From Escherichia coli (GTDB lineage Bacteria > Pseudomonadota > Gammaproteobacteria > Enterobacterales > Enterobacteriaceae), in NCBI RefSeq assembly GCF_003334385.1, contig NZ_QOWN01000153.1: DNA of 670 nucleotides. One strand, written 5' to 3'. This document shows, piece after piece, positions 1 to 670 of this stretch. Numbering within the stretch: position 1 is the first letter of the stretch; each line of letters starts with the position of its first letter. Below the pieces are notes generated by a model. The model made no database searches. It had not been told where the DNA came from and was given only the letters and a program-made list of their open reading frames with translations. The translations under genes and the position numbers were made by a program.

Positions 1-670
1 GAGGGGCCGTTCTACTTCCTCTTCACCGACAAGGATGGCGAAAAATACGGTCGCGCAAACAAACTTTCTGGTCTGGATAAGGCGCTGTCTGCTGGGGCTA
101 CTGAAATCACGAAAGAAGAATATTTCGCCCGCAAAAACGGTACATACTCAGGTTCACAACAAAATACTGGTGCATCTGACACGACCGCACAACCAGGGTC
201 AGTAAAAGTTACCGCTGACGAAGTAAACAAAATTATGCAGGCAGCCAATATCAGCCAGCCTGACGCCGATGAACTGCTTGCAGTATCACGTGGTGAATTT
301 GTTGAAGGGATTAGCGACCCGAATGATCCGAAATGGGTTAAGGGGAACCAGACCCGCGATTCTGTGAACCAGAACCAGCAAGAAACGGAACAGAACGACC
401 AGAAAGCGGAACAAAACAGCCCAAATGCGTTACAAAACGAGCCAGAAACGAAACAGCCTGAATCAGTGGCGCAACAGGAAGTGGAAAAAGTCTGCACCGC
501 CTGCGGTCAGACCGGCGGCGGCAACTGCCCTGATTGTGGCGCGGTAATGGGCGACGCAACATACCAGGAAACATTCGATGAAGAGTATCAGCCTGAAGTT
601 CAGGAAGATGATCCGGAGGAAATGGAAGGCGCTGAACATCCACACAAGGAGAACACTGGCGGCAATCAGC
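1..670 (+). CDS. recE: Internal fragment (both ends outside the window) of a RecE-like protein (exonuclease VIII of Rac-type prophages), covering the poorly characterised region upstream of the C-terminal nuclease domain
   Basis: Seen in sequence: frame +1 is open for all 223 complete codons (nt 1-669) with no stop. Codon choice is enterobacterial (CTG, CCG, GCG, AAA, GAA, CAG, AAC preferred) and the product is hydrophilic and protein-like, whereas the minus-strand ORFs translate to Cys/Phe/Ser/Trp-rich strings. Recalled, not searched: the segment [28 protein letters not shown]...[16 protein letters not shown]...[30 protein letters not shown]...[12 protein letters not shown] closely matches my memory of the E. 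coli K-12 RecE middle region, with scattered substitutions. Confidence that frame +1 is coding is about 0.85; confidence in the recE assignment is about 0.6. Confidence 0.7.
361..489 (+). other. Gln/Asn/Glu-rich low-complexity linker within the CDS ([43 protein letters not shown]), probably intrinsically disordered
   Basis: Direct translation of frame +1. The stretch is dominated by Q, N, E, K, P, S, T and has no aromatic or large hydrophobic residues. The DNA is built from reiterated CAG/AAC/GAA/CAA codons. Confidence 0.6.
493..537 (+). other. Putative C4 zinc-ribbon/zinc-knuckle motif CxxC-x7-CxxC ([16 protein letters not shown]) within the CDS
   Basis: Four Cys codons at nt 493-495, 502-504, 526-528 and 535-537 (TGC, TGC, TGC, TGT) in frame +1. 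They are the only Cys in the 223 translated residues and sit in a Gly-rich hairpin-like context (CxxCG...GGG...CPDCG). The spacing is typical of a small Zn-binding ribbon. Metal binding cannot be shown from sequence. Confidence 0.55.
541..669 (+). other. Strongly acidic segment following the zinc ribbon ([43 protein letters not shown])
   Basis: Direct translation: 14 Asp/Glu against 1 Lys (plus 2 His) in 43 residues, interspersed with Tyr/Phe. Compositional call only. Confidence 0.55.

Follow-up and report, generated by a model that had tools for sequence, protein, structure and literature searches.

When a stretch of bacterial DNA reads like the middle of RecE, does it belong to recE? The question is raised by a stretch of 670 nucleotides from Escherichia coli (hereafter the window; contig NZ_QOWN01000153.1 of assembly GCF_003334385.1). 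A preliminary description, made from the sequence alone, had assigned positions 262-670 to the uncharacterised middle region of RecE, the exonuclease VIII of the Rac prophage, just ahead of its nuclease domain, and had expected recT to follow. Our analysis gives a divided answer: the likeness to RecE is genuine, and the window is almost certainly an inner piece of another gene, a widespread early gene of lambdoid prophages whose 823-residue product joins a RecE-like hinge to a nuclease of a different kind in one of several mosaic architectures.

The likeness is readily documented. Residues 474-609 of the 823-residue protein, encoded by window 262-670, align with residues 454-574 of K-12 RecE with 91 of 135 columns identical and a single indel of 14 residues, at a Smith-Waterman score of 473 against 50 +/- 7 (maximum 73) for 200 shuffles. 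The comparison that the preliminary description had proposed, BLASTP against K-12 RecE, gives E=9e-61 for the full protein, with the part of high identity at 474-625 (RecE 453-591), and the NCBIfam exoVIII model places window residues 58-222 on its profile positions 437-585 (E=1.6e-64). At the DNA level, a single block is common to K-12 recE, running from window 267 to 39 nucleotides beyond the window end (77% over 443 nucleotides). The start at 262 had been placed accurately: nothing upstream of it has a RecE counterpart, and window 1-201 finds no match in K-12 RecE. Less reliable were the four protein strings quoted as K-12 RecE, two of which are the window's own; K-12 RecE is without the 16-letter one and reads IACNACGQTGGDNCPDCG for the other. 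The background given on RecE holds: a 2023 review still describes its N-terminal portion as of unknown function and full-length RecE as superior to the truncated nuclease in linear-linear recombination (PMC11611040).

The surroundings of the gene are those of a different prophage module. Frame +1 is open along the whole window, whose DNA is 100% identical to stretches of many E. coli chromosomes. In strain 118UI (NZ_CP032515, locus L001), the gene occupies L001 7843-10314 and the window L001 9001-9670. On the upstream side are dicB and a gene for a DUF1482 protein (ydfD), a Qin-like arrangement in place of the Rac-like genes that had been anticipated; downstream come an excisionase and then an integrase gene, at the ompW site. 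The order, with dicB-ydfD on one side and xis-int on the other, is repeated in phages Tritos, mEp460 and 813R8, and xis and int lie directly 3' of the gene in 118UI, Tritos, 813R8, mEp460 and locus L022. The position, in the early-left operon just 5' of the integration genes, is the same as that of K-12 recE. RecT finds no recT by tblastn across 18.7 kb of L001 (best E=4.3), and none lies within 9 kb. The flanks are thus not a recET-type recombination module, which the preliminary description had itself named as an outcome that would count against recE. As residues 1-256 share 96% identity with the K-12 Qin pseudogene ydfE (b1577) and the upstream genes are alike (dicA-ydfA-ydfB-ydfC-dicF-dicB-ydfD in K-12), we regard the window's gene as intact 'YdfE'. 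The K-12 copy is cut by IS2 after residue 256, so that nothing of the window, the hinge or the exonuclease domain is left in it. The intact gene is nothing unusual: very common and already catalogued, as PHROG 2082, which matches the 823-residue protein over its full length, and in RefSeq as 'exonuclease' or '3'-5' exonuclease'.

How common it is becomes clear from 5426 complete E. coli genomes, 4735 of which contain some match to the window, at a median of 2 places per genome and up to 9. DNA of its nuclease domain, of the DEDD type described below, occurs in 4064 genomes (8099 places) and that of the K-12 recE nuclease domain in 1736 (1827 places); together these 9926 places roughly account for the 9981 window-like ones. 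Among the matches shown, recT was found under every recE-nuclease match. The 'RecE middle region' is therefore not diagnostic of recE, as it sits about 4.4 times more often on a DEDDh exonuclease without recT, and many phage records mislabel the DEDD-type gene as 'exodeoxyribonuclease VIII'. For annotation, or for the mining of prophages for RecET recombineering pairs, the C-terminal domain needs to be checked.

The nuclease downstream of the window

The domain that follows just 3' of the window is not the PD-(D/E)xK nuclease that had been predicted. Pfam finds one significant domain in the 823-residue protein, PF16473 (Rv2179c-like), at residues 642-813 (model positions 2-177 of 177, E=3.4e-67), and no match to PF06630 or PF12684, both of which are detected in K-12 RecE as a control, PF06630 at its N-terminal residues 2-178. 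With the NCBIfam equivalog NF007259, the protein reaches 273.7 bits over profile positions 271-602 only, against a curated cut-off of 1269 bits and 1830 for K-12 RecE, and the nuclease part of RecE (600-866) finds nothing in it by BLASTP. The DEDDh catalytic residues are in place: D646/E648 (DLETMG), D746 (NGANFD) and H796/D801 (HNALDDA). In the Protein Data Bank (PDB), the nearest structure is a 227-residue 'Exodeoxyribonuclease' (8KEL/8KEN, E=6e-8), which we take to be T4 DexA, whose crystallography is reported in PMC12153337. From these signatures, the C-terminal domain is predicted to be a DEDDh 3'-5' exonuclease of the DexA/Rv2179c-like family, where K-12 RecE has a PD-(D/E)xK nuclease of the RecB family, already crystallised, with 5'-3' polarity. 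The second component of a RecET pair is missing as well, since recT adjoins K-12 recE and is absent beside the 823-codon gene. With no annealing partner and the predicted 3'-5' polarity, the protein probably does not serve as a recombinase of the RecET type.

The most concrete lead, by analogy, is a DexA/EcD-like degradation of particular DNA, which might serve scavenging or the exclusion of modified phage DNA. EcD, the E. coli 'HREX' anti-phage exonuclease, selectively cleaves DNA containing 5-hydroxymethylcytosine (5hmC) and protects against T4; DexA interconverts between dimer and tetramer, and EcD, with alanine at the position of DexA D90, represents a dimer-only form (PMC12153337). In that paper, EcD figures as a defence gene of bacteria, and the word 'prophage' does not occur (PMC12153337). 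Through its forward primer, we recovered an EcD-like protein of 189 residues that has A78, as reported for EcD, and shares 37-39% identity with residues 641-823 of the 823-residue protein; a match of the reverse primer was discarded as the EcD locus, being a chance match in a portal-protein contig. T4 DexA, EcD and the 823-residue protein belong to the same DEDDh family with conserved catalytic residues. However, DexA and EcD are standalone proteins of ~190-230 residues with no hinge, whereas the 823-residue protein is a fusion. At the position of DexA D90, where EcD has A78, it has aspartate (D718), and at the S87 position it has proline. In form and at the D90 position it is thus not of the HREX/EcD type, and because of these two residues the substrate preference of EcD is not transferable to it.

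Standalone relatives of the domain also occur in Klebsiella P2-like phages, where genes annotated as '3'-5' exoribonuclease' (L010 696-1253 and L011 832-1398) are 28-34% identical to the C-terminal domain. Their first catalytic motif reads DLI in place of D-x-E, and these proteins may be catalytically dead.

A hinge common to mosaic prophage proteins

The 823-residue product is modular. A YdfE-type N-terminal region (residues 1-257) is followed by a helical middle domain distantly related to RecE 278-391 (25% identity over ~115 residues), a lineage-specific segment (residues 387-473), a hinge that is ~70% identical to RecE 454-591, and the DEDDh domain. The window covers the following features of this chain, with conservation given as the ratio of non-synonymous to synonymous proportions (pN/pS), a crude measure summed by the Nei-Gojobori method over few short pairwise comparisons:

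Window 1-670, plus strand: internal part (codons 387-609) of the 823-codon prophage 'exonuclease' gene (WP_113344110-type; intact YdfE), with 100% DNA identity inside the coding sequence.
Window 1-201, plus strand: YdfE-lineage-specific segment, residues 387-453, ending Ser/Thr/Gln-rich; tblastn matches are confined to YdfE-type exonucleases from E. coli phages.
Window 202-261, plus strand: short segment, residues 454-473, common to DEDD proteins with a RecE-type N-terminus (e.g. phage 813R8) and not present in K-12 RecE.
Window 262-357, plus strand: island modA, residues 474-505, core at window 286-345; 84-94% identity across architectures, pN/pS 0.09.
Window 358-486, plus strand: acidic low-complexity spacer rich in Q, N and E, residues 506-548, variable in length; pN/pS 0.68.
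Window 370-417, plus strand: imperfect 21-nucleotide (7-codon) tandem repeat of 2.3 copies within the spacer; Tandem Repeats Finder score 59.
Window 487-588, plus strand: Cys4 element, residues 549-582, with invariant residues in an 11-sequence alignment; pN/pS 0.16.
Window 589-670, plus strand, and on for ~93 nucleotides past the window to the DEDDh domain: start of the acidic tail, residues 583-640; pN/pS 0.88.

The order of these elements is the same in the hinge of K-12 RecE, where modA is 84%, the Cys4 element 82% and the acidic tail (15 acidic and 3 basic residues; RecE 553-588) 67% identical. Relative to RecE, the 823-residue protein has 87 extra residues before the hinge and a spacer longer by 14 residues, an indel that equals two of the 7-codon repeat units. 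The spacer consists of 84% polar residues, with 10 acidic against 2 basic ones. The contrast between islands and spacer persists at a synonymous divergence of 0.7-0.9, where the islands stay at pN/pS 0.06-0.2. These ratios indicate strong purifying selection on modA and the Cys4 element, which lie within acidic, repeat-prone spacers that evolve fast.

Piece-wise BLASTP and fetched loci revealed how variably the hinge is combined, with the following architectures:

YdfE-type N-terminus, hinge and DEDD domain: 118UI, Tritos and mEp460, 823 residues; then xis-int.
RecE N-terminus, RecE middle, hinge and DEDD domain: P0129, 805 residues, in a sieB-kilR-ydaE context; then a DUF4224 gene and integrase, no recT.
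RecE-type N-terminus, hinge and DEDD domain: phage 813R8, 813 residues; then xis-int.
RecE N-terminus, hinge and PDDEXK domain: K-12, 673R7 and Rac-SA53; then recT.
RecE N-terminus, hinge and a short tail, without a nuclease domain by Pfam: Shigella phage 75/02 Stx, 682 residues; then gam, a recT-like gene and an exonuclease gene.
RecE with modA and without the Cys4 element: Gifsy-2; then recT.
RecE with the Cys4 element and without modA: P0144, 991 residues; then recT.

Window 262-670, the hinge, is the one part common to all architectures. P0129 illustrates the exchange: its part corresponding to K-12 RecE 1-452 is present at 100% and 94% identity, and its DEDD domain is 98% identical to that of the 823-residue protein. 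The RecE-N/DEDD hybrids match the window DNA from base 201 onward only, and in the 682-residue Stx-phage form, PF06630 is the sole Pfam domain. That the hinge is a cassette common to lambdoid prophages, with modules exchanged on both sides, is as secure as the identity of the gene, the two being judged together. The gene seems to be an undescribed variant of the RecE chassis with a swapped nuclease; no paper on the YdfE-type exonuclease was found within an incomplete searchable library.

Three side observations touch on this chassis. At L001 about 8575-8862 (residues 245-340) lies the only confident part of a full-length AlphaFold2 (AF2) model, a helical domain with a predicted local distance difference test (pLDDT) score of 77-92. 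It overlaps the segment that is weakly like RecE 278-391, and this modelled domain may be the core that the RecE and YdfE versions of the chassis truly share. In P0150, a RecE-like protein of 756 residues, an in-frame deletion joins RecE residue ~249 (…GANAGGGN) to the second knuckle of the Cys4 element (GGGN-CPDCG), with the loss of ~270 residues, among them modA and the first knuckle. Since both ends share GGGN/GGDN (compare K-12 RecE residues 246 and 524), a microhomology-mediated deletion is suggested. Finally, Actinobacillus phage vB_Apl-pPE4 (PP818812.1) carries at 3162-3569 a RecE-like gene whose hinge is 67% identical, and 94% over the Cys4 element; its recorded host, Actinobacillus pleuropneumoniae, is unexpected for so close a relative.

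The Cys4 element and what the hinge may do

The Cys4 element takes its name from C551, C554, C562 and C565 (codons at window 493-495, 502-504, 526-528 and 535-537), which form two CxxC knuckles in register, C-x2-C-x7-C-x2-C. Its consensus of ~30 residues reads C-x2-C-G-x2-G-G-G-x-CPDCG[AP]VMGDATYxEMF, and in the 11-sequence alignment C, CPDC, VMG and Y are invariant; the invariant core is CPDC-G-x-VMG-x-x-T-Y. The element is not confined to exonucleases. A tblastn search with 33 residues showed that Dam methylases encoded by P2-like phages (phiT5282H, SI7/SW3/SW5, Klebsiella phages) end in it at the C-terminus, and that proteins of an Aeromonas phage and Aeromonas plasmids contain it. In phiT5282H, SI7 and ST16-OXA48phi5.4, the methylases carry the 30-residue element directly after the catalytic core, with 47-58% identity over 36 residues and CPDC, VMG and Y invariant. 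These are unrelated enzymes (PF02086), in which the element is terminal, not internal, and is accompanied by neither modA nor an acidic spacer.

A profile of 36 columns gave 58 matches among 1.84 billion representative proteins. Nine long proteins matched in several stretches through an unrelated 'VTGDATYKATF' repeat and were discarded as spurious; the rest carry the element. At E<=0.001, Pfam assigns partners to a minority of 37 representative carriers (PF06630 in 6, Dam in 3, or 4 at E<=0.1, PF16473 in 3, PF12684 in 3), and most match no Pfam family; the source databases label carriers merely 'hypothetical' or 'exonuclease'. In 19 of 36 carriers, no more than 30 residues separate the element from the C-terminus, and 38 of 43 have at least four cysteines in it. 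The 30-residue core carries a net negative charge in 36 of 43 (-1.9 on average) and almost no Lys or Arg. An AF2 model from a 43-row alignment reaches pLDDT 70-76 over the knuckles and places a short helix on ATYQETFD, with flanks of low confidence. The Cys4 element is probably a small metal knuckle followed by a short helix. Pfam and NCBIfam contain no model that matches it significantly (Zn_ribbon_3 at E=4.8 in RecE, DZR at E=0.52 in the Stx-phage form), and Pfam finds no zinc ribbon in the 823-residue protein. This portable, unnamed motif of the shared hinge seems to be undescribed, as the same incomplete library yielded no paper on it.

Smaller carriers and neighbours were seen in other mobile elements. 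Two Aeromonas plasmids (L012 2219-2686 and L013 2222-2686) encode proteins of 154-155 residues with a C-x6-C-x2-CPDC variant; their coding sequences overlap with the beginning of a gene for a DHHA1-domain protein (RecJ/NrnA-like phosphoesterase), so that the element is again paired with a nuclease-type enzyme. In Mu-like early regions (L021 4001-4504 and L023 1009-1470), proteins of 167 and 153 residues end in the element; the genes around them encode Kil, DUF3164 and Mu Gam of transposable phages. Three IMG/VR contigs (L027, L028, L031) contain EcD or a near-identical allele (189 residues, A78) in apparently P2-like prophage early regions. The EcD-like gene lies on the minus strand at ~3480 (L027, L028) or ~4915 (L031), and a Cys4-tailed open reading frame ends at ~5195 or ~6430, respectively, so that a Dam-like gene ending in the element sits ~1.7 kb downstream of the EcD-like gene start. 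The EcD-like genes are neighbours of the Cys4-tailed Dam gene and not fused to the element. That the EcD-like domain and the Cys4 element are neighbours in P2-like contigs and fused in the lambdoid protein is a suggestive but unproven association.

What could such a hinge do? We propose that it would act as a flexible tether bearing two independent docking motifs, modA and the Cys4 element, and that these would recruit the attached catalytic domain, of whatever kind, to a shared partner or site inside the infected cell. Each motif occurs without the other, modA for instance in RecE-like proteins of Gifsy-1/2, SPN3UB and Klebsiella phages that have no Cys4 element, which suggests two separate contacts. 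The Cys4 element would be a small metal-stabilised knuckle that probably binds protein rather than DNA, a protein partner being favoured because the element is acidic and terminal on unrelated enzymes. Dam methylases and Mu-like early proteins carry it as well, which suggests that its bearers share a host connection. In its widest form, the proposal is that temperate phages of Gammaproteobacteria (lambdoid, P2-like, Mu-like) put an unnamed portable metal-stabilised docking module on DNA enzymes (RecE nuclease, DEDD exonuclease, Dam methylase) and on small early proteins, directing them to one common host target. For gene identity, mosaicism and docking mechanism blended into one figure, we arrive at a probability of about 0.7. 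The docking mechanism taken alone is tentative, with the odds somewhat against it, and the one-target form is a little less likely again. If true, the docking module would offer a handle on the long-unexplained N-terminal and middle part of RecE; the two small constrained motifs are in any case concrete targets, as point mutants or baits, for the role of the non-nuclease part of RecE.

Several observations weigh against this proposal. No candidate partner of the hinge was identified. Five of the 43 carriers have fewer than four cysteines in the element, so metal binding may not be universal, and the confidence of the AF2 model over the knuckles is only moderate. A Foldseek search of that model against the PDB returned nothing below E=5, and a sequence search of the PDB with the window found no relative, only chance matches to designed armadillo repeats. 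The pN/pS values come from few short pairwise comparisons, and the high conservation among E. coli copies is partly a product of recent recombination and not of constraint. Fu and colleagues reportedly found in 2012 that every N-terminal truncation of RecE lost the linear-linear advantage; if so, the hinge alone is insufficient for that phenotype.

Two alternatives survive about equally well, and we consider both improbable. The hinge could be a passive disordered linker with no function of its own, its conservation reflecting recent descent and recombination among prophages. The near-neutral spacer and acidic tail (pN/pS 0.68-0.88) with their repeat-slippage indels, the low AF2 confidence over most of the region (the full-length model, from a 45-row alignment, is poor, with a mean pLDDT of 39.8 and even the DEDD domain unmodelled) and the coincidence of the hinge with mosaic junctions all fit such a linker. 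The islands do not fit, as they stay constrained despite their high synonymous divergence. Moreover, unrelated proteins from Mu-like phages and from phages of Aeromonas, Klebsiella, Enterobacter and Salmonella conserve the Cys4 element, and shared descent of a linker cannot account for this.

The second alternative accepts the element as functional and makes it a nucleic-acid-binding zinc ribbon that holds DNA, either ends or single strands, for the attached enzyme. Knuckles of the form CxxC...CPxCG are a typical feature of zinc ribbons in proteins that handle DNA or RNA, and the identifiable fusion partners (RecE nuclease, DEDD exonuclease, Dam methylase) all act on DNA. However, a core that is net negative in most carriers and almost free of Lys and Arg, with strongly acidic flanks in the exonucleases, is poorly suited to this role, and no zinc-ribbon family of Pfam matches significantly.

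More doubtful still is a role of the Cys4 element or of modA in oligomerisation or in regulation within the protein, such as a gating of the attached nuclease that is lifted by a signal. The RecE nuclease is tetrameric (PMC11611040), DexA switches between dimer and tetramer (PMC12153337), and acidic spacers could conceivably mimic DNA in an active site. Yet small proteins and Dam methylases have the element at their very C-terminal end, and a nuclease-specific contact is hard to reconcile with carriers that share no catalytic domain; the full-length AF2 model contains no inter-domain contact and is too poor to judge. As for recE itself, with the PD-(D/E)xK domain and recT next, true homology to RecE 454-591 and the many records labelled 'exodeoxyribonuclease VIII' speak for it, but its chance is negligible: it is refuted at every locus examined by the Pfam and NCBIfam results, by xis-int in place of recT, and by the DNA, as K-12-type recE matches window 434-670 only, at 84%, and window 1-200 is confined to YdfE-type genes.

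Minor observations on the locus

An open reading frame of 161 codons on the minus strand (window 12-497) was considered as a gene and rejected, as it runs antisense to a conserved, selected frame and is unannotated in RefSeq; it is most likely a by-product of GAA/CAG/AAC-rich sense codons. Rfam gave a single chance match in the window (E=0.34), and PADLOC found no defence family.

In phage vB_EcoM-606R7, the gene is annotated as two 'exodeoxyribonuclease VIII' coding sequences (L016 2110-3030 and 3186-4553). It is probably disrupted like K-12 ydfE, and the gene family seems to decay frequently in prophages. Among the homology matches of the hinge and of the Cys4 element are also hundreds of 'exonuclease, partial' entries of 80-260 residues on contigs of 250-800 bp; evidently, this multi-copy prophage gene breaks short-read assemblies at the hinge.

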